Shown: piece after piece, positions 14,712-59,550 of the stretch | How the letters are laid out: each line of letters starts with the position of its first letter | How positions within the stretch are numbered: position 1 is the first letter of the stretch | Source of the DNA: a virus | Strand: one strand, 5' to 3' | Virus record (IMG/VR): IMGVR_UViG_3300017917_001562 | Location: 32,001 to 96,000 of that record | Length of the DNA: 64,000 nt | Program-made: the position numbers and the translations under genes | Notes under the pieces: generated by a model | Told to the model about the DNA's origin: nothing | The model's input: only the letters and a program-made list of their open reading frames with translations | Databases searched by the model: none

Positions 14712-14996
14712 TTAACTCCATTTTAATAACCATAAAGCTATATCGTCTTTATGTGTAAATCCCCACCATTCTTGTTGATTATGAAAGTCGGAACTGTAAG
14801 ACAGAATTTGGCCGCGGCAATGCAAATTACACCAAGTCCAGTATTCGTTGGAAAATTTAACAGGTTTAACACAAACAAACCATTTACTGGGCTTGTGCGG
14901 TTTAACTTGTTCTGGCACCCAAAGTCCACTATCATCGTCACCAAGTCCTGGGCGAATATCGTTCCAAAATTCTTTGAACTGCTTTCGATTTATCAT
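14712..14996 (-). CDS. Array member (ends ALWLLKWS)
   Basis: ATGA-coupled start; family motif. Confidence 0.75.
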   Translation of the reverse strand: MINRKQFKEFWNDIRPGLGDDDSGLWVPEQVKPHKPSKWFVCVKPVKFSNEYWTWCNLHCRGQILSYSSDFHNQQEWWGFTHKDDIALWLLKWS

Positions 14997-15205
14997 GACC
15001 ACTTCAACAATGTTAACAAGGCTTTTTTCTCGTCTGCGAAATGCCAAGTAGTACCATAAGTGGGGCTCCTTAGATTCATATCATATGTACGCCACCAGTC
15101 TTGTTTAAACTCACCTACATAAGTTTCTAACCACTCATTAAATGATACATCTGGTACTAATGAACGATGAAGACCCTTGAGTTGACTTTGATGTATTTTA
15201 TTCAT
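14993..15205 (-). CDS. Array member (ends LLTLLKWS)
   Basis: Family motif and junction repeat. Confidence 0.75.
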   Translation of the reverse strand: MNKIHQSQLKGLHRSLVPDVSFNEWLETYVGEFKQDWWRTYDMNLRSPTYGTTWHFADEKKALLTLLKWS

Positions 15206-15207
15206 AC

Positions 15208-15438
15208 TTACGCCCATCGCAGTTTCCATATTACATATAGTTCTGGAGTCAAGTATAAAGCAGTATTACTGTCGGGATCATCTCGCATTGGTCGCCATAA
15301 ATCAGGATCTTGCACTCGGATCCACTCAAACATACCCTCGGGGGTCCTAAATCCTTCAAAGCTTGGATCATCAAAACAATATGTTTTGTATCCGTGTGTA
15401 AAAAGTTCGTAACGACCGTTGCGTGGCAAATGACTCAT
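15208..15438 (-). CDS. Array member (ends VIWKLRWA)
   Basis: Family motif. Confidence 0.75.
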   Translation of the reverse strand: MSHLPRNGRYELFTHGYKTYCFDDPSFEGFRTPEGMFEWIRVQDPDLWRPMRDDPDSNTALYLTPELYVIWKLRWA

Positions 15439-15647
15439 CGGTTTCCTTTTAAAATAAACCACACAGCATCCTGCTCACGCTCAAACCACACTGTTCGACT
15501 ACCGTAGTAGAGATAGAACTTACCAGGCGAATCCATTAACTGCAATTCACGCTTGAGTTGGGCATAGTTCCAATTTAGGTTGATTGTGCGTAGAACAGGA
15601 TGCCAGTGCTGTTGCCGAACCTTTTTATCTTTGTTCCAATATTTCAT
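15435..15647 (-). CDS. Array member (ends AVWFILKGNR)
   Basis: WFEREQDAVWFILK. Confidence 0.75.
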   Translation of the reverse strand: MKYWNKDKKVRQQHWHPVLRTINLNWNYAQLKRELQLMDSPGKFYLYYGSRTVWFEREQDAVWFILKGNR

Positions 15648-15871
15648 GACCACCTTAATATAAACCAACTCATATCTTTACGAGCATCCGGATAATCTAA
15701 AAAATAAAAATTAATTAAATCGTGTGTAATAGTATTACCATCACTGTGATATTGATTAGTAATGTAATGTGGACAGTTTTTCTTTGCCCATTGAATAGCA
15801 CTATACAAATCAAGTTTACTACGGTCTACTGTTATGTAGTTATCAGTAATCTTCATATGCCAGTTGTCCAT
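15644..15871 (-). CDS. Array member (ends SWFILRWS)
   Basis: Family motif and junction repeat. Confidence 0.75.
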   Translation of the reverse strand: MDNWHMKITDNYITVDRSKLDLYSAIQWAKKNCPHYITNQYHSDGNTITHDLINFYFLDYPDARKDMSWFILRWS

Positions 15872-16083
15872 CAACTCCACCTTAACAAAAATGCTGTATA
15901 ATCTTCTTCATGCTCAAATACCGCAGTAACAAACTTGTTGTCTTTGTCCTCGACCATTTTGCAGCCAAACTCCTGTAACCATTTTTTTCGGCTTTCTTCT
16001 AGTCCCAACGACTGAACACCAAGTGTTTCACGCCACGCACGACGAAACATTGAATGATGCTTTTTTAAATCTACTTCAATCAT
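15871..16083 (-). CDS. Array member (ends TAFLLRWS)
   Basis: Family motif. Confidence 0.75.
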   Translation of the reverse strand: MIEVDLKKHHSMFRRAWRETLGVQSLGLEESRKKWLQEFGCKMVEDKDNKFVTAVFEHEEDYTAFLLRWS

Positions 16084-16138
16084 GACCACCTCAATGCTAG
16101 CATTGTAGCATGATTTGCATATTTTCGTCTAACAAATT

Positions 16139-16221
16139 GATAAATAAAAATGCGAGTCGCGATGCGTCAACATCCACCCGCCCTAACAGTTGAAAAGGAA
16201 CTATCAGCATGAATATTTATT
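16139..16221 (+). promoter_or_regulatory. TAAATA late-type promoter plus structured leader of endonuclease gene
   Basis: Same architecture as 49839-49918, with compensatory stem changes. Confidence 0.65.
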
Positions 16222-16583
16222 CCCCGGCACGACCCCCATCTGGGTATTATGTTTACGCATATATAAGATCAAAAGATTCGAAAACAGGTAAAGCAGGGAC
16301 TCCGTATTACATTGGTAAAGGCAAGGGCAATCGAGCCACTCGACGTCACGGAAAAAACCCTATTCCAGATTTTGATTTCATAGCAATATGTGAAGAAAAT
16401 TTAACTGAAATTGGTGCATTAGCGATTGAACGATTCCTTATACGTGTTTGGGGGAGAAAAGATATCGGTACCGGAATTTTGTTAAACAGAACAGACGGCG
16501 GGGATGGGACATCGGGTAGATCAGCAGAGTCAATCTGCACCCAAACTGCGCCACCAAGGTCTACCCATCTTGGATCATTATGA
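16209..16583 (+). CDS. GIY-YIG-like homing endonuclease, probably C-terminally truncated
   Basis: YYVYAY...YYIGKG, E-rich helix, [10 protein letters not shown]; after ~16520 it reads into the antisense of the host gene. Confidence 0.7.
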
Positions 16584-16731
16584 TCTACAATTAAAGGGCC
16601 CACAGGCCACCTTACTTTGATAACAACACCAGGAACAAACCTCCACCAAAGTTTTTGCCAAATGTTTAATCCGCAAGGCAAATATCTGCCAGACGGCAAT
16701 TGAAATAAACTTTTAATTTCCCACTTAGCCA

Positions 16732-17133
16732 TTATGAATATTTCAATGCTATCATTACGGCATCTTGCTCATTGTTAGTTGCTACAAACACTTTATCCTC
16801 ACCGCCTAGTTCGTTTACTGTCCATTCCCAATCAGTAGAAGGCTCACACATAACACGATGAAACTCCCAAACAGCATTTTCACCTAAAGCACGAGCAGGC
16901 CAAAAATAATGTTTTGTATCTTCTCGCACGGTCCACCCAAACGGTTGTTCTAAGTTAAAAAACTTGTTAGGATCAACGATAACAATATGTTTAAAATTTC
17001 TAAAAATATCTTTGATACGAGTAGCACGGACATTAACGGTTTGTTCATACCATGCCTTATACTCACGCTCTGCTTTTGTATAACCAGTTGTGCGAGTAAG
17101 ATACCAATCTTTGATATTGTCGAATAAAATCAT
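16732..17133 (-). CDS. Array member (ends VMIALKYS)
   Basis: EQDAVMIALKYS. Confidence 0.75.
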   Translation of the reverse strand: MILFDNIKDWYLTRTTGYTKAEREYKAWYEQTVNVRATRIKDIFRNFKHIVIVDPNKFFNLEQPFGWTVREDTKHYFWPARALGENAVWEFHRVMCEPSTDWEWTVNELGGEDKVFVATNNEQDAVMIALKYS

Positions 17134-17136
17134 GGT

Positions 17137-17376
17137 TTATTCTGCTAATACTTCAAACAGTTCAGCATACTGTGTTTCGGGTTCATCAACGAATCCAGTA
17201 TAGACCCATACTCTGCGACAATAAACTTTTTTAAGCCACACCCAACGGTTGTTAATAGTTTTATGCGGCAACAACACAAATGTTTCAACCCAGTCGTGTT
17301 CTACCGCGGTTATGTCGCCTATGTTTGGGATAAACATTGCTCCTCTAACTATTTCTTTAAATAGGGAAAAACTCAT
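17137..17376 (-). CDS. Hypothetical protein, not a family member, within the array
   Basis: Starts at a junction ATGA; W-x-LP-K...W pattern resembles 28864-29121. Confidence 0.7.
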   Translation of the reverse strand: MSFSLFKEIVRGAMFIPNIGDITAVEHDWVETFVLLPHKTINNRWVWLKKVYCRRVWVYTGFVDEPETQYAELFEVLAE

Positions 17377-17594
17377 GCCCACCTTAACGCTAATAAAATG
17401 TAAATTTTTTCATGAACATCAAATACATTATAGTTGATATGCCATTTTTCGTCAATGTTTTGAAACCATTGTTTATCTTCCTGCTCACAGAAAGATGTTC
17501 TTAACCAAATACTAACTTCTTTTTTACAAGATATAGTATACCAAGATTCATTATTAACTATAGCCTTAGTCCTTACTTTGAAGTTAGATTTCAT
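17373..17594 (-). CDS. Array member (ends ILLALRWA)
   Basis: Family motif and junction repeat. Confidence 0.78.
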   Translation of the reverse strand: MKSNFKVRTKAIVNNESWYTISCKKEVSIWLRTSFCEQEDKQWFQNIDEKWHINYNVFDVHEKIYILLALRWA

Positions 17595-17839
17595 ACCCAC
17601 CTCAACGCAAACATAGTATATTTTTTCTCATCTACCACTGCAACCTGCACAACTTCGTATCCGTGCCTACCATATATATCTTGTTTAGGACATAGATCTA
17701 ATCTGAGCCCGGCTGTTTGTTCAATATGATACTTAAACCCAAGCATACGGTCCTCTCCAGAACTGGGCCAATCTGGGTCATATTCCATATAACATTTGTT
17801 TAGCAAACGATTTACGGATTTTGTATCTATAAATCTCAT
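17591..17839 (-). CDS. Array member (ends TMFALRWV)
   Basis: Family motif and junction repeat. Confidence 0.78.
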   Translation of the reverse strand: MRFIDTKSVNRLLNKCYMEYDPDWPSSGEDRMLGFKYHIEQTAGLRLDLCPKQDIYGRHGYEVVQVAVVDEKKYTMFALRWV

Positions 17840-18048
17840 GAGCTCCACCTCAATGCAAACATAGTTGCATCCTTGCTATTGCGGAAGTAATAATCCACAC
17901 CCTTCATTGAGGGCACTCGATTCCAGCGACCTTTAAACGGGCCCATGTTTTCGCCTAGCCATTCCTCAATCTTGTAATGCCCGGCGTGATCCATGGGCAT
18001 AGAGATAGGAATCTTTGCTGGCCAAATTTCTTTCTTTAGTTGTCTCAT
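17836..18048 (-). CDS. Array member (ends TMFALRWSS)
   Basis: Family motif and junction repeat. Confidence 0.78.
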   Translation of the reverse strand: MRQLKKEIWPAKIPISMPMDHAGHYKIEEWLGENMGPFKGRWNRVPSMKGVDYYFRNSKDATMFALRWSS

Positions 18049-18335
18049 GACCACCTCAACTCTAAGAATGTTACCATTTCCGGAGGAACTAAGAATACAC
18101 TTTCAAACCATAGGTACCATGTGAACTTTTCTCGTGAGAAATGTTCGTTCATCCACACAACCTCTGGACCTAATACATCTACGCAAACATAATCTTCATA
18201 TCCCATGGGAGGGGCACGGCCAGTATCAACACGCGGCGGAATCAGGAATGTTGATTCATATTCGGCCAACCATTTAGCGTGAGCGGCTAGTTCGTTATCC
18301 GGTATCAGAGCAACACTTTGGAAATTTACTTTCAC
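18045..18335 (-). CDS. Array member (ends TFLELRWS), GTG start
   Basis: Family motif and junction repeat. Confidence 0.75.
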   Translation of the reverse strand: MKVNFQSVALIPDNELAAHAKWLAEYESTFLIPPRVDTGRAPPMGYEDYVCVDVLGPEVVWMNEHFSREKFTWYLWFESVFLVPPEMVTFLELRWS

Positions 18336-18565
18336 GACCACCTCAACATAAACCAAGTATACGCTTGTTCATCATAAAAGTCAATATACCTATCACCGTA
18401 ACCGCTTAACGGATTTATGGGTTTGGCTATCCAAAAGTTTGCCGACCAGTCCATGAGAGCATGATTGATTTCTTCCTCGCCAAAACTATCTGGTAAAAAG
18501 TTATACCACCATCTTGGGATTTCAGATGGATGGCGATCTTCTTCAAATATCTTTATTCTAATCAT
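18332..18565 (-). CDS. Array member (ends TWFMLRWS)
   Basis: Family motif and junction repeat. Confidence 0.78.
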   Translation of the reverse strand: MIRIKIFEEDRHPSEIPRWWYNFLPDSFGEEEINHALMDWSANFWIAKPINPLSGYGDRYIDFYDEQAYTWFMLRWS

Positions 18566-18771
18566 GACCACCTCAACACAAACATCATATAATCATCTAC
18601 ACGGCGAAATTCAAATACACCTTCACTAACATAACGCCAGTTCTGTTCCTTGAATCGTCCTCTACACCATTCCATCGCAGGCAACCAGCCCCAGTGCTCA
18701 TACTCCTTGTGTGCAGGTTGAGGCACACTTGCAATAATCCAACTGTTGATAGGATTTCTTGGCAATTTCAT
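18562..18771 (-). CDS. Array member (ends MMFVLRWS)
   Basis: Family motif and junction repeat. Confidence 0.78.
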   Translation of the reverse strand: MKLPRNPINSWIIASVPQPAHKEYEHWGWLPAMEWCRGRFKEQNWRYVSEGVFEFRRVDDYMMFVLRWS

Positions 18772-19022
18772 GACCACCTCAGAATAAACATACTAGCGTC
18801 TTTTTCTTTTTCAAACATCCAGATGCTACCTCGACCTTGATGGTTACCTTGTAAGTTTTCTCTGCACCATTTTTTGATTTCGTATATCTGCGTCTCGTGC
18901 ATCCTTGCGGGCCACTTTATCTCAACCTTTGTATAGCCTAGTTTAATCATCATGTCGCACATGATTTCCCAGTCTGTTTCTTCCTGGAGGGTTTTTGCAA
19001 GGTCTTGTTTTATTATTGTCAT
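18768..19022 (-). CDS. Array member (ends SMFILRWS)
   Basis: Family motif and junction repeat; resembles 13843-14130. Confidence 0.78.
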   Translation of the reverse strand: MTIIKQDLAKTLQEETDWEIMCDMMIKLGYTKVEIKWPARMHETQIYEIKKWCRENLQGNHQGRGSIWMFEKEKDASMFILRWS

Positions 19023-19240
19023 GACCACCTCAACATAAACAAAGTAGCATGTGCGGGATCAGAAAACCACATTACATATCCAGAGCCGGGTTCTAGTCGC
19101 CAGTAGTGTTCGCTAGCTGGTTTTCCATATTGACAGTTATTAGGACTACCAAAAGTTTTTAAACACCATGCCCACCAAACAGGCAGGCCTTGTTGATTAT
19201 ATACATGTCTATGTTTCATGGGTACAATTACAATATTCAT
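19019..19240 (-). CDS. Array member (ends TLFMLRWS)
   Basis: Family motif and junction repeat. Confidence 0.78.
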   Translation of the reverse strand: MNIVIVPMKHRHVYNQQGLPVWWAWCLKTFGSPNNCQYGKPASEHYWRLEPGSGYVMWFSDPAHATLFMLRWS

Positions 19241-19482
19241 GACCACCTCAACGCAAATAACATAGCCTTTTTTTCGTCTACGATAGAGATCATAGTATCA
19301 CCTAACCTTGCGCTATACACTCCCCACTCATCGCCCGCTTCAGGCTCAATATCAATGCCGTCAGGCCAACTATTTTTTAACCAACGGCCACCGGGTCCTA
19401 CATTGTTGTATAACCAATGTTCTAACTCTACAAACTGTATCCGGTGTTTGCTCATAATGGTAGTAGCATCAAAGTTAATCAT
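19237..19482 (-). CDS. Array member (ends MLFALRWS)
   Basis: Family motif and junction repeat. Confidence 0.78.
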   Translation of the reverse strand: MINFDATTIMSKHRIQFVELEHWLYNNVGPGGRWLKNSWPDGIDIEPEAGDEWGVYSARLGDTMISIVDEKKAMLFALRWS

Positions 19483-19727
19483 GACCACCTCAGCGTTGTA
19501 AGCATCATGTCTTGCTCAAATTCAAAATAAAATCGGCCGGTTGATTCACAAAAACTATATCGGCCATGGCTGGGATAATTGTTACACCAGTTTACAATAG
19601 CTGCTTCTTTAACGAGCCATTCTAAAGTACCAGTATCGTAACTATCGAACTCTTCCTTATTCCAAAAGTTAGTAGAGTCTACAACATATTTGAAATTTTC
19701 TATGTCTAAGTTGGCTATTTTCTTCAC
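19479..19727 (-). CDS. Array member (ends MLTTLRWS), GTG start
   Basis: Family motif and junction repeat. Confidence 0.75.
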   Translation of the reverse strand: MKKIANLDIENFKYVVDSTNFWNKEEFDSYDTGTLEWLVKEAAIVNWCNNYPSHGRYSFCESTGRFYFEFEQDMMLTTLRWS

Positions 19728-19936
19728 ACCCACCTCAACAGTGCAAACATTCTATCTTTTTCATTTGTAATATACCACAAGTCAACACCATTAAGTGTGC
19801 CCTGGTATTCTGTTTCTATAGAATTTTTTTCACACCACTTATGAAAGTTTATTCTTTGCTGTGAGCTAACAGTAAAGCCCCGCGGATCACCTACTAATTT
19901 TACTCTGCCCTTTTCTGCAAAAACTTTAGTGGTCAT
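19724..19936 (-). CDS. Array member (ends MFALLRWV)
   Basis: Family motif and junction repeat. Confidence 0.78.
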   Translation of the reverse strand: MTTKVFAEKGRVKLVGDPRGFTVSSQQRINFHKWCEKNSIETEYQGTLNGVDLWYITNEKDRMFALLRWV

Positions 19937-20151
19937 GCCCACCTCAGTGCAAACCACTCTTTGTTTTCTCTAACTTGAAATATGTATCCGTTAGAGCCTG
20001 AACTTAGAAGAAAGTATTCTACTTTGTTTTCGCGCATCCAACCGTAGATGTCAAGCCACTCCTGAAATGTGCGAACAAGGTAAGTAGGGTAACCTGCCCA
20101 ACCTGGGTAGCTAGTAGATTCGACTTTCATATTCATTGTGTTATCAATCAT
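19933..20151 (-). CDS. Array member (ends EWFALRWA)
   Basis: Family motif and junction repeat. Confidence 0.78.
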   Translation of the reverse strand: MIDNTMNMKVESTSYPGWAGYPTYLVRTFQEWLDIYGWMRENKVEYFLLSSGSNGYIFQVRENKEWFALRWA

Positions 20152-50562: not shown

Positions 50563-51678
50563 CTATTTGCTCAATAATATATTTAATTCAGGCCAAAGTT
50601 CTTGAAAACTATATTTTGGTATAATGACCTGTTCCATTTGTTGTATCCAATCTAAAAATCGTTTTGATTTAGTGGAGTCTTCAATATCATCTAATAAACT
50701 TTGTTTTACACCAGTTAAAAAAATATCATCAAATCCCAAACTATCTATTTCTTGTACAGCTAAATCTCTTATTGGTTTACTGTGTCCAAATGATAAAAAA
50801 CTATCTGTAGATAAATTATATGGATCATTGCTAGCAAGTCCTAATTGCCAATTAACTCTTAAATTGCCTTTGCTGTCAGCAAATTCATATAATTCTTTTA
50901 ATCTTGTTGCATTGAAAATAGTATATACTGGGTGTAAAGTAACATTGTTGGTTGTAAAATCTATTTTAAGTTGCTGGATATTTTTACATAGTAAATCCCA
51001 ATCACCGCCTGCCCTTACATATTCAAATCGATCTTCTATATTATCAAAACTTAAATTCCAATAAGTTTTTGGAAAGTTTAAAAGTTTTTCATAGATTTTG
51101 TTTTTTGTCAAATCAACACTACCGTTTGTAAGTACATCAATTTTAACATGTTTAGGCAACATATCTAACAATCGTATATTGTTTTTTTGCAGTAAGGGCT
51201 CGCCACCTAACAAATAAACACATTCAATTGTATCTAAGTTTTCTTCTATTAGGTCAAATAATGATTCTGTGTAATCTCTATTAACAGATTCTATAGGTAA
51301 GTTTCTTATTTTTCGCCATTCGCTGCTGTCATGTGTGTTACAATACCTGCAAGTTAAATTGCAGACATTGCTCCAGCGGATATCAATTAGTTTTAATTTT
51401 CTATATTCTTGTCGAGGAAATTGATCATTGAATGCTGACCATTGGCTACTGCCTGGTGCTGTTGATTCTATGCTATAACAACCTGAACAATAGTTATTTG
51501 CTTTACCATTCTTTAGATCATGTTGTAGTTGAATAAATTTGCTTTTTTGAAAAATTTGCTGTACAGGTTCTTGCCTTACACTACCCAAAGGCACCGACCC
51601 ACTACAGCATAAACCAACATAGCCGTTCACAGACACGAACAGCCCTGTGTCTACAGCACTACAGTAATAATCTTTCAT
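50563..51678 (-). CDS. Radical SAM protein with twitch/SPASM domain
   Basis: N-terminal CC...C--C; CNLTCRYC; GGEP; TNG. Confidence 0.85.
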   Translation of the reverse strand: MKDYYCSAVDTGLFVSVNGYVGLCCSGSVPLGSVRQEPVQQIFQKSKFIQLQHDLKNGKANNYCSGCYSIESTAPGSSQWSAFNDQFPRQEYRKLKLIDIRWSNVCNLTCRYCNTHDSSEWRKIRNLPIESVNRDYTESLFDLIEENLDTIECVYLLGGEPLLQKNNIRLLDMLPKHVKIDVLTNGSVDLTKNKIYEKLLNFPKTYWNLSFDNIEDRFEYVRAGGDWDLLCKNIQQLKIDFTTNNVTLHPVYTIFNATRLKELYEFADSKGNLRVNWQLGLASNDPYNLSTDSFLSFGHSKPIRDLAVQEIDSLGFDDIFLTGVKQSLLDDIEDSTKSKRFLDWIQQMEQVIIPKYSFQELWPELNILLSK

Positions 51679-51681
51679 TAA

Positions 51682-52116
51682 TTATTTAAGACTGGCTCTC
51701 AGCATCCAACCATGTTTTTGGTGTGCGTCTAGTCTTTCAGCTAAAAAGTTGCTGAGACCGTGTTGACCTTCGCGTTCTGCTAGGTCGTAGACCAATTTGA
51801 TTACCTTAAGAATCTTATCGTTGTCAGCAAGTAATTCTGCAACCATTTGATCCTTGGGCAACACATCAGTTTCATCTTCAATTTGGGTAAGCATACTTAA
51901 GCGTGTATAACTACCGGGAGTATAGCTGCCTAGTTTACGAATGTTTTCAGCAAAAGAATCAATACTGCCATACACTTCTTCGTAAATTTTACCAAACAAG
52001 TCATGATACTCTAAAAAGTCTGAACCTTCTACATTCCAATGAAAGTAGTGTGCTTTTAGATAAAAACTAAATTCTGTGCTGAATGCAATTTTCATTGCTT
52101 TTACTAATTCGTCCAT
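51682..52116 (-). CDS. dps: Dps DNA-protecting ferritin-like protein
   Basis: HWNVEG-F-EYH, D--AE and K--WML motifs. Confidence 0.92.
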   Translation of the reverse strand: MDELVKAMKIAFSTEFSFYLKAHYFHWNVEGSDFLEYHDLFGKIYEEVYGSIDSFAENIRKLGSYTPGSYTRLSMLTQIEDETDVLPKDQMVAELLADNDKILKVIKLVYDLAEREGQHGLSNFLAERLDAHQKHGWMLRASLK

Positions 52117-52117
52117 T

Positions 52118-52546
52118 TTATTCTGCCTTTTTATTCTTGTCTTTTTCAGTTATGGGTCCGCCTGTGATCCAAGCTCTACAACTTCTTGCACCTGCACATT
52201 TGAAGTGCAAAAAGTTACAATAACCAATGTCAGCAATATTTATGCTGGCATTAGCATCTATGTTTGGTTCATCACCTTTGATACCATTGGCTATGCATTC
52301 GCGCATACTGTCGCTGACATCAAAGGCCGCACAGTTTGCACACTGCATGGTTTTTGCAATAGCTTCTGTAACTTTAAATCCTTTTGCAGCTTTTTTCCAA
52401 TAGTCGCCGGGATTATCAGGGTTAGCAGGACCATAATTATATTCATCTATGGCCTTTTGTCTATTTTTAAGATTAATATCTATGTTATGAGTAGCTACAG
52501 GACAATTCTTTGTAGCTGCTTCCATGATCTGTATATAATTACGCAT
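52118..52546 (-). CDS. Cys-rich hypothetical protein
   Basis: CANC...GYC---FKC---RSC--W; [10 protein letters not shown]-terminus. Confidence 0.7.
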
Positions 52547-55500
52547 ATTTACGACCTTTGCGAGGTAAACTACCAATTGGACTGGTAGCGTTTTCGTCAC
52601 CAATGGTACTAGCACGACCAGTAAAGTCACTTATCCTAACTTCTTTTAATTTAACTTCCTTAATCTTAGGAATGCCAAATGCTCGTTGTGCTTCTAATAC
52701 AGCAGCAGGACCTTGCGATTCTGTTATGTACCAGCCTTGGCTATCTTGTGTCATTTTAAAATCATTGCGTAAACTTGCAGTGTCTGTGGCTTTGGGTGTA
52801 AAATAAAATCTTGTTTCTACTACACCTTGTGGTGCTTGTTGTGCTTGAACAGCCTGTTGAGGATTTTGACGGAGCATTTGTGGGGCCATTGTAGCTATGT
52901 TTTGAGCATTAGGATTAGGTGCAGTTACTGCATTTACAACTTGGTTAATTAAACTATCATGTTGTTCTAGCTCTTGATAAACATGTTCGTTTTCTTGATC
53001 AAGTTGATCTAATTTTGGTTTTACACTATTAGCTAAAGCTGAATTTAAATTATCAATCTCTGCATTTAATTTTTCAATTTGTGCTGTATAATCTTTAACT
53101 TGACCAACTCGAGCCTGTGCTGTTTTTGCAGCCGCTTCTGCATCTTTAAACTGTTGTTCTAATTTTTCAATTGCTTTAGCATCAACAGTTTCACCTTGCT
53201 GAACAGCCGCAATGGCCTTTTCTAGTTCTGCAATTTTATCAGCTGATACACCGGTGCCCTGTTTGTTTTGCATACGCTGTTCTAAGTCAGCGATCTGACG
53301 CTCTAGTGTAGCAGTAGCTTCGGGATCAATGTCAGGTGTGGCCTTAAGTTGATCCAGTTGTTGAGCTAGTGTTTGTAACTGAGCTTTACTGGCCTGTTGC
53401 TTTACTTTTTCTTTTTCTAATTCGCCGCGATGCTTGGTAAGTTCCTTGCTAGTAATTTCACCTTGTTCAGCACCAATGTCTGCTCGTTCACCTGCAGCCT
53501 GCAACTCTGATTTTAATTCTTTATTATAAGCCTTGGTCTTTTCTAATTCTTTGAACAATGCCACAGCCACTTGTTGTTCGGGAGGTACACCACTCAGTCT
53601 TTGTCCTTGTACAAAATTCATCATCTTTTGATAATCTTGTGAAGGGGAAGCTTTGGCTTCGTTGGTTTTCTTTTTATTGCCCCAGTTTGCTGCACCTTTT
53701 TTACGGCACTGTACTAAGGCACCTGATGCATAAGCACTTGGCCATACTTTGTAACGGCTTTTAACTTTGTGATAGCAAGCGTCTTGTTTTTCAGCTAAGA
53801 TTAAATTACTAAATGCTGGACCACCACACTCTGGACAAGTTTGTTGAGCTTCTGCCACATCTTGTTGTCTACGATGAAGTGTAACTTTATGTTCACCAGG
53901 CGTTTCTTTCCTCCATTTTTGTGCGGCACCTAAACTATCAAACTTCGGACCTGGTTGAAACTCTCCGTTTTTGTCTTTGGTATGACCACGATAGTAATGT
54001 TCTTCATCGTATGCATCTGCGTTAAATCCTTCCGCTACACCTTGCTGACCTGTTACAGCCTGCAATAGTGCTCTTGCAACTACACGATCTTTTTCCTGTT
54101 CGTCGTTGTCTAGTTCAGAATAACTAATTTTCATTAGTTTAGCTCTTTGCTGTAGTTTAGCTTCAAGTTTTCCCGCTTGACGAAGTTTTTCGGTATCGTC
54201 AAATTGATCAGGGTCTTGAACAAATCTCAGTGCTGTGGTATTCCAACCTTTGTGAATTGCGTCTGCAATAGCTTCAATGTCTGTTACACCAGCATCAATC
54301 ATTTTTTTAGCATAAGCAGCAGATTGAAGATTGGCTTGCCATCCAAAATTGTTGCCAGGTGTGCTACGACCATAACCATATGCTTGGTCCAAGGCTGCAT
54401 CGCTGACAGCAGCTAACTGCTGTATAGATAAACTATTAGCGTTTTCTGTCATTGGGCTTTCTACTGGTTCTGCTGAAGTAACTGATATAATTATTCCACG
54501 CCTCTTAAACTTCTTTATTGTTTTGGCTATTGCTTCTTCTTTTGAATCTGCTTTAGTTTTGGTAGAACTATGAATTGGTTGTCCAACCTGTGTATTCCAT
54601 TGAAAGTTAACTTTCCAAATTGGGGCAGTGTCTACAGCCACAGTGGGTTTAGCTTGAAGCAATGCATCTTGTTGTTTTGGTGGCAACGATAAAAACTCAG
54701 TTAGTTTCATCTTCTTGCCATTAATTGTTACAAGGTTCTGTCCACCACCCGCAGTGCCACCTTCGTATTTGATCCACTCCAGTGCAGGGCTTTTTACAAT
54801 AAAACTGGTTAAGAAGAATGGTTTTGGATCGTTTCGGTTAGGCGCAAGATAAGATCTTCTGGCAGGATATGTCATTGCGTCAATATGTGTAAACTTCATG
54901 CCGTTTCGTGCAAGAATGCTTGATAGTGTATCGTAGTGGTTTTGTTGGACTTTACTAAAAGTATATGTGTCAGGTTTGCCAGAATACTGTGTTGCACCAG
55001 GACTGTATATGCTGCCTTCCGCCACACCTTGCTCGAACGATTTGAACACAGAACGAGCAACTGCTTTAACCTGTTCTGGAGAAAGTTTTTTACCTAGTTG
55101 CTCCTGGGCTTGTTGATAGATGTCTTTGATATCTGGATTGTTGAAATCGTCTTCGTAGTCCCAATATGTAAAGGACACTTTGTTACCATCTACATCAAGC
55201 ACATACACCATTTGATCTAAATCGTAATCTTGCTTGACAATGGCAACGCCTTCCGCCACACCTTGCGTCAGGAATGATTGCAAAGCGTCGGATCTGCTAG
55301 GATGTTTTAGTTTTCGAAGTGCCTTTGCTTCAATCTGTCTAATTCTTTCGTTAGATACTCCTAATTTTCTGGCAACATCGGCTAATGACATATCATCATA
55401 GAATCTCATGTCGATGACTGTTTTTTCAGTATCAGTTAAAGTGGACATCTGTTTGGCCATCACACGCTGCAATTCTGCTTGGTCATACTTGTCGTTGGGA

Positions 55501-56186
55501 TCATAAGGTTCGTCGTATTTTGTATCATATCGATCGGCATTGTGCACCGGATCTTGCGGGTCCAGTGTAGGCATCTTATTTTTTGCACCCTTATATGTTG
55601 CGCCGTTTGGATTGTATCGTGATATCTGTTGATTAGGATTTGCTTCCGCCACACCTTCATTGGATTTTTTCTTTGTAGCAACATTGATCGCCGCACCACT
55701 ACGCTCAGGATTTGGGTCTTCTCTGCGCTTTTTAGCAGCCGCATACTTACGGCCTTTTTTGCCTAGTGCATGTGCCTTGGCCTGTGGTAAACATTTTGGT
55801 TTACCTTCACTGCTATCGCCTCTAGCACAACTACCACGAATTTCGCCATCAGGTCCAAAACGAACCCACTTTTCTTTAAACCACTTGCGTAGATTTTCTG
55901 TAACAGGTGCTGACGAGTCTGGTTCTAAATCATTTGTACGGTCACCGCGGTAGTTTTCTAAATTGTTGACAATTTCATCAACAGCCATATCAACATCACT
56001 CATGCTGTGAATGTCATCTGCTTCCTCAGCATAATCAATAATAGCATCACCCACTACTTCATGCCCATAACGAGTAATTGCTTCGGGATATTTTTGTTGT
56101 AAGCCGTTAAACAATATCTCAGCCAAATCAATGGGACTGATATTTTCAAATAGTTTATTGTTATTATATAAATCGTTTAAAAACAT
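52539..56186 (-). CDS. Large modular protein, probable capsid-internal polyprotein with sigma70 region 4 module and coiled coil
   Basis: Five (Q/E)(G/D)VAE linkers; [14 protein letters not shown] motif. Confidence 0.75.
53848..55658 (-). repeat. Five copies of 17-bp linker CAAGGTGTGGCGGAAGG (QGVAEG)
   Basis: + strand positions 53848, 54028, 55015, 55249, 55642; 19 bp identical between 55014 and 55248. Confidence 0.9.
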
Positions 56187-56190
56187 CTCG

Positions 56191-59100
56191 TTACTTTCCT
56201 TGTTTAGCTAAAATGCCTGCTTGTTGTAGTGCTGTCTTAAGTGGGCCCGCCGCGGTTGGAGTTTCTGCAGCTTTTAGAACCAATGGAGTTATTGTACCCA
56301 TTGCTCGTTGTTGATCTCTTGTTAAAGGCTTACCGTCATTGGCATTAACAATTGCCTGCGCCAATGCATCAGTGTTTGTTCCCGGAGGAGCAACACTGCC
56401 AATTGTATCTGCTACACCTCTTGCTGTGCTGGCATCAATGGCTTGATCTCTTTTTTGCTGTTGTTGCTGTGGTGTACCTGCTTGACTTGTTGCTTGTGTG
56501 CCCGCTGTTGTATCTTGTGCATAAGGATTGGTAGCTTGTCTTGCTGGGCTAGTTGCTTGCATTGTTGGGTTAGTTGCCAAACTAGGAGGTTCTTCTTCCT
56601 TGATGGGCTTGTCATCTTTATCTTCAATGTCGCGCAATCTTTGCATTAATTTTCCAAGATCAACAGGACCTTGTTTCTTTTCCTGTGCTTTGGCTTTGGC
56701 TCGCAATCTATCAACTAAATCGTCAAACTCATCATAGCTGTAGCGTCCTGCAACTTTTTTATCATCGCGATTTTCTCTCATAGCTATTTGTGTTTGTTGT
56801 GATTGTGCTTGTAATTTATCGTTATATTTTTTATCCATAGAAGCTATCCAATTACCTGCAGTAGTTGATGCTAATGCAGGATTATTTTTGCTAAGGTATG
56901 CCATGCGTTCTTCGTGTGCAGGGGTGCCTGGAGCTCCTGCTTTTCTTGCTAATATATCTGCAACAGTTGCATTTGGCTCAGTTTTGGCAGCATTTAGTAC
57001 CTGATTAGTTCCGGCAGGACCTATAAAGTGTGCGCTGTATACAGTGGCAGGGCTTACTGGAATTTTGTTTCTTTGCAATTCTGCTAAATTATTATTTAAT
57101 AATTGATTTTGCATTGCTTCCTGAGTTTTAGCATCAAACACTGCATTGTCTGGTATGTCTAGTTGTTTTTTAAGGGCATCAAGAGTCGTACCTGTAAAAC
57201 CGTACATACCGACAGCATTGGCTTGCCCGCCTCTGGCCTTTTGAAATTGTTGAACTTCAGACATGGTCATTTGATCTAAAGGTTTTGATTGACCTAGATT
57301 CTGTTGTGACCATTCTTCAGGAGTAATATAAGGTCTTCCTGCATTATCTTTAGCTCGCATCTTGCCACCAAAGAATCCATAGTGTCCGCTATAACTTTGA
57401 CCTTCAAGCCCGCCTACTACTTTATTAAGGTTTGATCGATCTTGATATGAAAGATCGTATTCTGCAGGATTAGCAGCTTTGGCTCTAGAAACAATAATAG
57501 AATCAGTTGGATCTGCCATTCCTACATAAGCCTGTTGGCGAGGTGTAAGCTTAGACCAAGCTTCAGCTTTGGCAGGATCTTTACCAGTCCAAGGATTAAC
57601 ACCCGGGGCTGGTTTTGTTGGTGCAGGTGTTTGTCCTGATGTCCATGGTTCACCGGAACCACTAAGCCATGGCTGACCAGTTGTAGGTGATGTAACGGCA
57701 TTGGGCGGGAGTTCAACTTTACCTGAGGATCCTGCAGGCACAGTAGGCTGTTGCGGTTTTTGTACTGGCGGTTTGGTCGTCGGAGGTTTAGCACCAGCAG
57801 TAAATCCCATTTGTTGGTTCCAATTTGCCGCAATCTTACTTAAAGTGTCACCTTTTTGTACAGTATAAATGTCACCATTGGGTGCTGTAATTTGTTGGCC
57901 TACATAAATCAAATTAGGATTTTTAATCTGCGGATTTAATTTAGCTAACTCTTGCCAAGAAGTAGATTTTAATTTACTGCTATCTCCGTAGGTTGTAGAT
58001 CTTGGATCAGTGTCACTGGTTTTTCTGCCAGATGGATCTAATCCTGTTGAACTTGGCTCCATTTGTTGTGGAAGTTCGTCAGCATCAATTTCTGGTTCCG
58101 GTGTTGTGTCGGGTTGAGTTTTTGCTGAACTGCCTGTGGGGGTAGAAATTCCTGATAGTTGTTGCAGTCTTGCAGTATTATCATCTGTACTAGCTATTGG
58201 TTTAGCCGCTGGTTGTTTAACCAATGGACCTGCAGCTGTTGCTGGTCGTGTAGTATCAGGTTTAACAGGTGTGCTTTGAATTTGTTTTTCTATTTCAGCT
58301 TTTTGTTTTTCTGCCTGTTGTGCTATTTGTTGATCAATTTGACGAATTACAGCTTTATGGTCCGCTGCAGTTGGCGGTTTGTATTCAATACCCGCTTCTG
58401 CACGTTGTTTAGCAAGCCATTCTGCTTCACTTTTGTTTAATTCACCTGAGTATGTACCTAATGCACCTGTCACTCCTATAACACCAGGAATCAATCCTAA
58501 AATGTTTGCAGGTTCTGAATCTGTCCCTTTATAAATTGGTGATGGGTCTCTTTTAGGAAATGCTTTCGGATAAATGCCAAAAGGTGTGCCACCCGGTCCT
58601 TCGATAGGTTTAGTTTCTACGCCTTTATTCCAACCTGGCTTTCCAGGAACCATCTGATCAGATGTTGCACTGGGCGGTGTTGTTGTTGCTGTAGTTGTTG
58701 GTTTTGCGGCGCTAGTATCAGTTGTCTGATTAGGCTCTGCTGCCCAATTGTCTTCTTTAAACTCTTTATATTTTTCTTGTAGCTTACGCTGTATAGCAGT
58801 GTCTTTAGCTGTTTTATCTAATTCACCTAGGACACTTTCTTGTTGTTCTTCACTGCCGCCAACCATTTTATGTTTTGCATCACTGGCCGGATCTGTGCCC
58901 ATCCAGTAACCGGGAAATTTAGGACCAGTAGGATTTTTTGTAGCAGATGACATTGATTCAACAATGTACAAACTTTTTTGTATATCAGTCATTTGTTCAA
59001 ATTCTTTTAAATCTTTTAACGGTTTAAAGTCTGGTATGCCTTTAGGAGGAGTAGGTCCGCCAAAGCGCCAAAAGTCTAATCCACTGCCAATGTTATTGCC

Positions 59101-59550
59101 ACCGGGAATAGGTATAGGCAACGGAACAGTTGGCGAAGGTTTAGTTTCACCTGGCTTAGTTGACTCCGGTTTAGATGGTGTTGGCTCTTGCCTGGGCCCC
59201 GGCGTTGGTTCTTGTTCTGGTCCGGGTATTGGTATAGGAGTTGGTGTAGGTATTGGCTTAACCTCTGGCCCTGGTGTTGGAGCAGGTTGTGGTTTAGGCG
59301 CAGGTGTTGGTTTTACATCGGGCCCAGGAGCAGGCTCTGGTGTGCTTGGGCGTGAAGGTGCTTCACCTGGTTTGGGTTGATCTATCTTTGGTTGGGGTTC
59401 GGGTCTTGGTGTAGGTCTTGGCTCTGGTCTAGGAACCGGTTTTGGCGCTGGCCTAGGCTTTGGTATAGGGAGTTTAGGCAGTGCTAGCTCTGCTAATTTT
59501 TTAGCCTCAACTTCATTTAAAAAGTCCTGAAAACTTTTTTTATCGCTCAT
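56191..59550 (-). CDS. Pro-rich virion protein with LysM and lysozyme/transglycosylase-like domains
   Basis: [31 protein letters not shown]...FD--TQE, YSAHFIG. Confidence 0.75.

Follow-up and report, generated by a model that had tools for sequence, protein, structure and literature searches.

A silently conserved GVAE linker at points of module exchange in a predicted cargo polyprotein of uncultured jumbo T4-related phages

We analysed a stretch of viral DNA of 64,000 nucleotides (the window), comprising bases 32001-96000 of the 108,581-base IMG/VR virus record IMGVR_UViG_3300017917_001562. A single gene on its minus strand (52539..56186) encodes P0001, a protein of 1215 amino acids composed of unrelated modules that are joined by a linker conserved down to its silent sites. 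Modules are exchanged at this linker between related phages. We consider P0001 to be a cargo polyprotein in which counterparts of the T4 internal proteins are concatenated, with a probability of roughly 0.6. CheckV completeness of the record is 31%, which implies a full genome of ~350 kb, and the GC content is ~39%. The family-B DNA polymerase encoded in the window is nearest to those of jumbo T4-related phages; its best matches were Sinorhizobium phage Phosso (52%) and Agrobacterium phage Atu_ph07 (47%), together with 350-kb phages of Vibrio, Salicola and E. coli.

The window was searched for the 17-mer CAAGGTGTGGCGGAAGG at up to three mismatches. Exactly five matches were found, all on the minus strand, at 53848, 54028, 55015, 55249 and 55642, with 3, 1, 0, 0 and 2 mismatches, respectively. 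Shuffling of the window gave an expectation of 0.02 matches, and five were reached in 0 of 100 shuffles. All five copies are in frame within the single open reading frame (ORF) of P0001, which is the sole ORF with GVAE across the whole 108-kb record. Numbered from the N-terminus, linkers 1 to 5 read NEGVAE/A, TQGVAE/G, EQGVAE/G, QQGVAE/G and QQDVAE/A, where the slash follows the Glu at P1. The copies at 55015 and 55249 share 19 identical bases. The spacing between linkers defines modules of 131, 78, 329 and 60 amino acids, among which no mutual similarity was detectable. GTG and GCG account for 11% of Val and 6.4% of Ala codons, respectively, across 52 long ORFs of the genome, yet each of the two is used in four of the five linkers of P0001. 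An initial annotation, made from the letters of the window, had reported five such copies at these positions, two of them identical over 19 bp, had remarked on the GC-rich synonymous codons retained in them, and had placed unrelated modules of 125, 70, 320 and 55 amino acids between them; apart from the module sizes, all of this was confirmed. The part of its interpretation that makes the repeat a crossover point also held. It missed the minus-strand location, a degenerate sixth linker, QGVVE/T at 52815-52829, and further boundaries, probably degenerate, near residues 94 and 578.

The linker is a property of a large protein family. A search over 5.8 billion proteins yielded at least 1297 long and at least 6189 shorter relatives, which are mosaics with only single modules in common with P0001. 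The linker was surveyed in 240 of these homologous mosaic proteins (120 long and 120 shorter), all from uncultured jumbo phages. The motif [Q/E/K]-G-V-A-E-[G/A/D/E/S] was present in one to eight copies in most of the 120 long homologs, and GVAE was present in 107 of the 120 shorter ones. The four residues P4 to P1 are invariant, and P1' is variable, being small or acidic. When 120 proteins were split at the linker, 425 segments were obtained, which fell into 268 clusters. For recurrent modules the distinct neighbours were almost as numerous as the occurrences; one module of 76 amino acids occurred 10 times with 8 different upstream and 7 different downstream partners. Shuffling within the family concerns the interior; the KWF-type N-terminal module and the C-terminal domain stay comparatively constant. 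Among the relatives, the modules that could be recognised are Sigma70_r4, LysM, SLT, chitinase-like lysozyme (Glyco_hydro_19), a VgrG3-like C-terminal domain, PG_binding, ParB_N, Zeta toxin, GNAT, methyltransferase (Methyltransf_23) and nucleotidyltransferase (NTP_transf_2), and the majority of the family modules belong to no recognised family.

Exchange at the linker was seen on comparison of orthologous loci. Three loci, L004, L005 and L010, are syntenic with the window. L004 and L005 carry a LysM giant gene upstream of the polyprotein gene and a radical-SAM gene and DNA polymerase downstream; L010 has a gene of radical-SAM size downstream, as in the window, but a shorter upstream ORF. The polyproteins of these loci are 885 (L004), 1031 (L005) and 651 (L010) amino acids long, compared with 1215 for P0001 and 1695 for P0002, the closest homolog. 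The orthologs are alike in the first 181 residues and in the C-terminal part and differ in their interiors, so the module order is not fixed and interiors are swapped between shared ends. At the nucleotide level, homology of the P0001 gene to L004 and L005 covers bases 1-544, base 544 being the last base of linker 1, and it restarts at base 2350, immediately after linker 5. Breakpoints were then counted as the ends of megablast segments among 186 linker-bearing ORFs from different contigs. Of 472 internal ends of high-scoring segment pairs, 26% were located within 10 nt of a linker centre, compared with 1% for random positions. Among 132 linkers for which a close relative was available, 113 were breakpoints and 19 were spanned by homology. 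Because of these breakpoint statistics, the in-frame crossover point proposed in the initial annotation is well supported.

The silent sites of the linker are conserved as well. To obtain a sample unbiased for linker codons, 70 distinct GVAE sites were taken from loci that had been fetched via module peptides. At these sites Gly was encoded by GGT in 94% (background 43%), Val by GTG in 76% (19% in those ORFs overall), Ala by GCG in 73% (8% overall) and Glu by GAA in 90% (background 81%). The exact sequence GGTGTGGCGGAA was found at 41 of the 70 sites (59%), compared with ~0.5% expected from codon usage, so the codon retention seen in P0001 extends to the larger sample. A larger set of 251 sites gave the same codon picture and in addition showed conservation of CAA at P5 and of GGC (70%) at Gly P1'. 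In homologous modules of 60-90% amino acid identity, the codons of conserved Gly, Val and Ala residues were kept in 36-51% of cases, compared with 92-100% in the linker, a comparison that comprises only 12 pairs. The search for the 17-mer in other phages, which the initial annotation had suggested, found it in at least 120 IMG/VR stretches, often in several copies within a few hundred bases; a synonymous control composed of preferred codons gave 33 hits, all single. In complete relatives two or three genes carried the 12-mer, always on the coding strand, with three to six copies per genome. Each of its 284 distinct copies was in frame as GVAE, and none was out of frame or intergenic. On this count a frame-independent DNA signal, whether Chi-like or for packaging, was rejected. 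A Shine-Dalgarno-like pause was also rejected, as the consensus 18-mer ranks 696 among 1024 synonymous variants for anti-Shine-Dalgarno pairing.

For the silent-site conservation we favour concerted evolution through the exchange itself. Module traffic would be the simplest explanation because fresh recombinant junctions carry the consensus by construction and drifted linkers stop spreading modules. A minority rival, which we regard as improbable, holds that the silent sites are kept for a function of the nucleic acid, such as a two-tetrad G-quadruplex, a translational pause at domain boundaries caused by rare codons or by a Shine-Dalgarno-like sequence, or recognition by a site-specific nuclease that would initiate the exchange. 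The consensus does contain a two-tetrad G-quadruplex motif, GG-TGT-GG-C-GG-AA-GG, for which GTG and GCG are exactly the codons needed, as these rare codons precisely create the second and third GG tracts. The bias is also somewhat stronger where the Gly at P1' provides the fourth GG (0.88/0.87 compared with ~0.78), and rare codons at domain boundaries are known to aid folding. However, GTG and GCG persist at ~78% of the sites that lack the fourth GG, which weakens the G-quadruplex reading. Pausing on rare codons leaves the common GGT (94%) and the GGC at P1' (70%) unexplained, and neither the anti-Shine-Dalgarno rank of the consensus nor the confinement of the 12-mer to a single frame within genes is in line with a function of this kind.

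The linker may at the same time be a processing site. The T4 prohead protease cuts after Glu at P1 in the context (L/I)-x-E. With Val at P3 and Glu at P1, the V-A-E of the linker is compatible with this rule for T4 gp21. We find it plausible, at somewhat better than even odds, that the linker is a cut site of the prohead protease and that the pieces are packaged and injected, as the initial annotation had proposed. The leaders point in this direction. T4 internal proteins undergo a single cut beside the 10-residue capsid targeting sequence (CTS) MKTYQEFIAE (PMC8442874, PMC9026906), and the family member P0210 begins with MKTLQDYIAE. Three types of short conserved leader cover 100 of 154 distinct N-termini, each ahead of unrelated modules: M-[KR]-x-x-E-[FI]-x-x-E (n = 21), MS-x-ILKGL-x-E (n = 17) and M-[NF]-L-x-D-[LF]-[FY] (n = 62). 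The look-alike leader of P0142 is MKITEILTEQGVAE. Single-module relatives start with MKITEILTEQGVAE followed by A, or with MLVKIVDESGLAE followed by G, and then continue with the helical module (residues 579-719 of P0001), so that the leader itself ends in GVAE. In these proteins GVAE is best read as the cut site of a propeptide because it joins nothing there.

Components of a T4-type head are present in the relatives. Four of the five related records encode Peptidase_S77 (gp21) and Gp23, among them all three with a completeness of at least 92%, and the capsid proteins of the relatives have LLAE/S, LKE/N or LLE/N just ahead of a conserved mature N-terminus. As to packaging, the KWF and WPSAYASG domains of P0001 occur in series in protein T4-GC119 of cyanophage S-SM1. 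This protein was identified in purified S-SM1 virions (13 counts), and its gene varies from 276 to 2985 nt among cyanophages (PMC3037559 Table S8). Modules of the relatives, namely SLT, chitinase-like lysozyme, LysM, ParB_N, Zeta toxin, GNAT, methyltransferase and nucleotidyltransferase, are typical of injected polyvalent proteins (cf. PMC5512222). The 'effector' role that the initial annotation gave to the modules is putative for P0001, in which only one of them, sigma-70 region 4 (Sigma70_r4), can be assigned to a fold family. In a complete relative of 352 kb (record G001, L085/L089) a gp22-like scaffold of 366 amino acids has ~25 [LIV]-x-E sites, including VAE/G and VAE/S, and the capsid protein has LLAE/S where the maturation cut is expected.

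It is possible, although we think it unlikely, that the linker is only a recombination junction and a flexible hinge, and that P0001 is an uncleaved large polyvalent protein which is delivered whole or acts inside the infected cell. Module exchange is the only property of the linker that was actually demonstrated, a precedent exists in polyvalent proteins that stay uncleaved, among them the N4 virion RNA polymerase (Iyer et al. 2017, PMC5512222), and the protease gene is absent from the 108-kb fragment. However, four invariant residues followed by a variable P1' are not required for a hinge and look more like a recognition site. The hinge reading also does not account for single-module proteins that carry GVAE at the end of a leader of 13-23 amino acids, nor for the resemblance of some leaders to the T4 CTS, which is removed by cleavage. 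Cleavage by a different protease, from the host or another one of the phage, in the cytoplasm or after entry and independently of head assembly, seems more doubtful still. The strict conservation of P4 to P1 indicates specific recognition and has no direct tie to gp21, and the gene lies outside a head-gene cluster. Yet 42 family members yielded no peptidase domain, and the combination of a P1 Glu and a hydrophobic residue at P3 is typical of T4-type prohead proteases. Homologs of gp21 are encoded in the related near-complete genomes, and the CTS-like leaders point to the prohead.

Several observations weigh against a packaged, processed and recombining polyprotein. [LIV]-x-E is a common tripeptide, so the fit to the motif is weak when taken alone, and T4 sites have L or I at P3, not V. 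The genes for gp21 and gp23 were not found in the 108-kb record, which is 31% complete. The polyprotein gene adjoins the DNA polymerase and metabolic genes and no head genes, and the T4 late promoter motifs TATAAATA and ATAAATA were neither enriched nor located upstream of the operon. Consensus and variant linkers served as breakpoints at similar rates (0.80 and 0.68, p = 0.37); dependence of the crossover on exact DNA identity is thus not demonstrated. A stretch of 18 bases is also short for homologous recombination of the T4 type. All carriers of the linker are uncultured and known from sequence alone, and when the whole protein was compared with 50,697 phage records by tblastn, only sigma and small basic cyanophage domains were returned. 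Finally, the N-terminus of P0001 up to LAE is 23 amino acids long, compared with 10-19 for T4 leaders (PMC9026906), although it is conserved in the orthologs.

On balance the cargo polyprotein accommodates these data best in our estimate, and the following sequence of events is proposed. The N-terminal leader, which is short, would direct the precursor to the core of the prohead. There a T4-type prohead protease, homologous to gp21, would cleave behind the Glu of every G-V-A-E linker and at weaker V-x-E boundaries. About 10 small proteins would be released, remain inside the head and be delivered to the host along with the DNA; we infer the cleavage, the identity of the protease, the packaging and the ejection from motifs, leaders and homologs. 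Among the released cargo would be a free sigma-70 region-4 domain, a pair of small basic domains that contain Cys, and several modules without an assigned function. The linker, CAA GGT GTG GCG GAA GGC, is the only sequence common to otherwise unrelated modules, and for this reason it acts as a frame-preserving crossover point. Recombination between linkers then swaps, adds or deletes whole modules while the frame and the predicted cut sites stay intact. A bolder version, to which we give somewhat less than even odds, extends this scheme to a large clade of uncultured jumbo T4-related phages. In these phages one coding motif of 18 bases would be both the head protease site and a dedicated frame-preserving recombination site, constituting an in-frame 'integron' of injected proteins, with its silent sites maintained by exchange, by a dedicated enzyme or by DNA structure.

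Homology segments shared between P0001 and 120 relatives begin or end at the linkers and also break near residues 94, 578 and 1124, which gives ~10 segments. The features described here are all on the minus strand. Residues 1-23 (MFLNDLY...SPIDLAE, 56118..56186) form a candidate capsid-targeting leader ending in L-A-E, whose targeting role is putative and which is conserved in P0002-P0004, L004, L005 and L010. They are followed by an acidic N-terminal segment common to the orthologs (residues 24-94, 55905..56117; isoelectric point, pI, 4.1), which ends near APVTE, a possible degenerate boundary. Residues 95-181 (55644..55904) make up the basic 'KWFKEKWV' domain (pI 10.1, phrog_23735) with two invariant Cys. 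Its identity is 70-91% over 44 phage loci, cyanophage homologs exist, and its AlphaFold2 (AF2) model was too poor for a structure search, with a predicted local distance difference test score (pLDDT) of 62.6. Linker 1 (NEGVAE/A, GAAGGTGTGGCGGAAGC, 55642..55658), at which the nucleotide homology to L004 and L005 stops, leads into residues 182-312 (55251..55643). This module contains a free-standing sigma-70 region 4 (Pfam PF04545, E 8e-19) and matches the C-terminus of RpoD. It has no regions 2 and 3, and a further match is to the C-terminal end of MzaA, a sigma factor that belongs to an anti-phage system.

Linkers 2 (TQGVAE/G, 55249..55265) and 3 (EQGVAE/G, 55015..55031), both the exact 17-mer, enclose an acidic module of 78 amino acids (residues 313-390, 55017..55250), which is present in P0027 and P0069 beside other neighbours. 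Residues 391-578 (54453..55016) constitute a basic module (pI 9.8) without a family match, and the end near EPVES is probably a degenerate boundary. The helical module of residues 579-719 (QQLA..SD.ALD.AYGYGRS..., 54030..54452) is the most widespread of all and is carried by more than 6000 shorter proteins. The AF2 model of residues 579-720 had a pLDDT of 89.8, with the QQGVAE end disordered (pLDDT ~41), a circumstantial point in favour of cleavage there. No Foldseek match at E <= 0.001 and no significant PDB match was found for this module, and the best VIA Z of 5.9 is within the noise for helical proteins. Three weak and non-independent leads to the RyR repeat (Foldseek 6uhi, VIA 3nrt and an Atlas cluster) were noted, with no support from hidden Markov models.

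Linker 4 (QQGVAE/G, 54028..54044) is a GTA variant. It precedes a module of 60 amino acids (residues 720-779, 53850..54029) that is 97% identical in P0002, where it also ends in a QQDVAE linker. Linker 5 (QQDVAE/A, 53848..53864) is a variant with D at P4, and the nucleotide homology to L004 and L005 resumes just past it. Residues 780-1124 behave as one segment, in which a basic Cys-rich CPECGG...WPSAYASG domain (residues 781-845, 53652..53846; phrog_727) is followed by a long coiled coil (residues ~846-1119, 52830..53651) with weak coiled-coil-type matches only. The former domain has its homolog in the S-SM1 virion protein T4-GC119, and its end resembles a decayed linker. Both the KWFKEKWV and the CPECGG...WPSAYASG domain show 70-90% identity across dozens of otherwise divergent phage contigs. 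The degenerate sixth linker (PQGVVE/T, 52815..52829) is the start point of many homology segments. Beyond it lies the basic C-terminal domain (residues 1125-1215, 52542..52814), the comparatively fixed end of the family, for which tblastn against the same 50,697 phage records revealed no cultured relative. No Pfam or NCBIfam family was found for the segments of P0001 apart from sigma region 4.

The gene directly downstream (52118..52546, minus strand) encodes a protein of 142 amino acids with a CTS-like leader, and its ATG overlaps the stop codon of the polyprotein gene (ATGCGTAA). The protein shows 50% identity (E 7e-42) to the N-terminal module of the 678-residue polyprotein P0017, and thus appears to be a cargo module that is separate here and fused elsewhere. 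As judged from this homology, the split and fused forms tie the polyprotein arrangement to the one-gene-one-cargo arrangement of T4. Upstream in the same operon is the gene for a LysM protein of 1119 amino acids (56191..59550, minus strand), which is syntenic in L004 and L005. The polyprotein gene starts 4 nt past its stop, and the two genes are probably translationally coupled. The LysM protein has long Pro-rich repeats (PxPxP); relatives of its type have the KWF domain, and this copy is without it. Immediately downstream of the cargo genes, between them and the DNA polymerase gene, are a Dps/ferritin-like gene (144 amino acids) and a radical-SAM/SPASM gene (371 amino acids) at 50563-52116 on the minus strand. 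The same genome contains a second, inter-gene system of junction repeats: a 14-base junction, TGAGGTGGTCATGA, is located between small genes at 14993-19946 on the minus strand, with 13 copies at up to two mismatches compared with 0.4 expected. The initial annotation had likened the linker to the gene array at 14-20 kb, and the likeness is reasonable because the junction repeat occurs 13 times there.

If the proposed scheme is true, one motif serves both the loading of many small proteins from one gene and their exchange without breaking the frame or the processing. It would represent a naturally evolved set of in-frame cassettes encoding injected proteins for host takeover or anti-defence, and would yield a catalogue of hundreds of uncharacterised cargo modules bounded by a searchable tag. 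It would also be a clean natural case of silent-site conservation that arises from recombination and not from protein or RNA function. The free sigma-70 region-4 module suggests interference with host transcription at entry, and it could be a decoy for the beta-flap of RNA polymerase or for -35 sites. Linker and leader could serve as parts for loading phage heads with foreign proteins, an application for which the T4 CTS sets a precedent.

In the literature searched the system is new, a variant with this linker on the theme of T4 internal proteins and polyvalent proteins; no paper describing the linker was found, and a search of the phage literature for 'GVAEG' returned none. T-even internal proteins are diverse cargo with the conserved CTS as their only common part (PMC3012670). 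IPI, IPII, IPIII and Alt of T4 (PMC9026906, PMC3012670, PMC8442874) resemble the present system in their diverse non-essential cargo, in a leader that ends in hydrophobic-x-Glu, for which the family has candidates, and in their occurrence in phages with a T4-type prohead protease, as encoded in related records. They differ in that each cargo has a separate gene and one cut, whereas here up to ~10 predicted cargos are fused and the predicted cut motif recurs inside the ORF, with its DNA sequence frozen. Polyvalent proteins (PMC5512222) are likewise large mosaics of unrelated conflict-type domains that are predicted to travel with the DNA and undergo extensive domain shuffling. P0001 with its ~10 segments, taken together with the domains of its relatives, is in the same way one polypeptide with many unrelated domains, conflict-type enzymes among them. 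An embedded peptidase, a frequent but not universal feature of polyvalent proteins, was found neither in the 42 family members (E <= 1e-4) nor in the segments of P0001 (E <= 1). For polyvalent proteins, embedded peptidases of the MPTase type are invoked and the word 'linker' occurs 0 times (PMC5512222), whereas the present family has a fixed peptide and DNA motif at its junctions.

The PeSL cassettes of the hyperplastic regions of T4-type phages are reportedly shuffled as modules with a short conserved motif at their boundaries. Like PeSL and the 14-base junction, the linker is a crossover motif at module boundaries between related phages, and as a conserved short DNA motif it coincides with the breakpoints. 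Unlike these two, which lie between genes and carry expression signals, it lies inside an ORF and must keep the frame and presumably the protease site. The intergenic position with promoter and stem-loop that characterises PeSL is not shared by the 12-mer, with 284 of 284 copies in frame. In the phiKZ-like giants phiKZ, 201phi2-1 and SPN3US, head-internal proteins are cut after Glu at S/A-X-E by a T4-related protease, with multiple cuts per precursor (PMC10052503, PMC9026906). There the cuts mostly strip propeptides from single proteins, and a shuffled polyprotein or conservation of the site at the DNA level is not reported. Cyanophage T4-GC119 (Sullivan et al. 2010, PMC3037559) shares the KWF-type and WPSAYASG-type domains in series and a highly variable gene size; it is without GVAE linkers, and short acidic stretches of another kind connect its domains.

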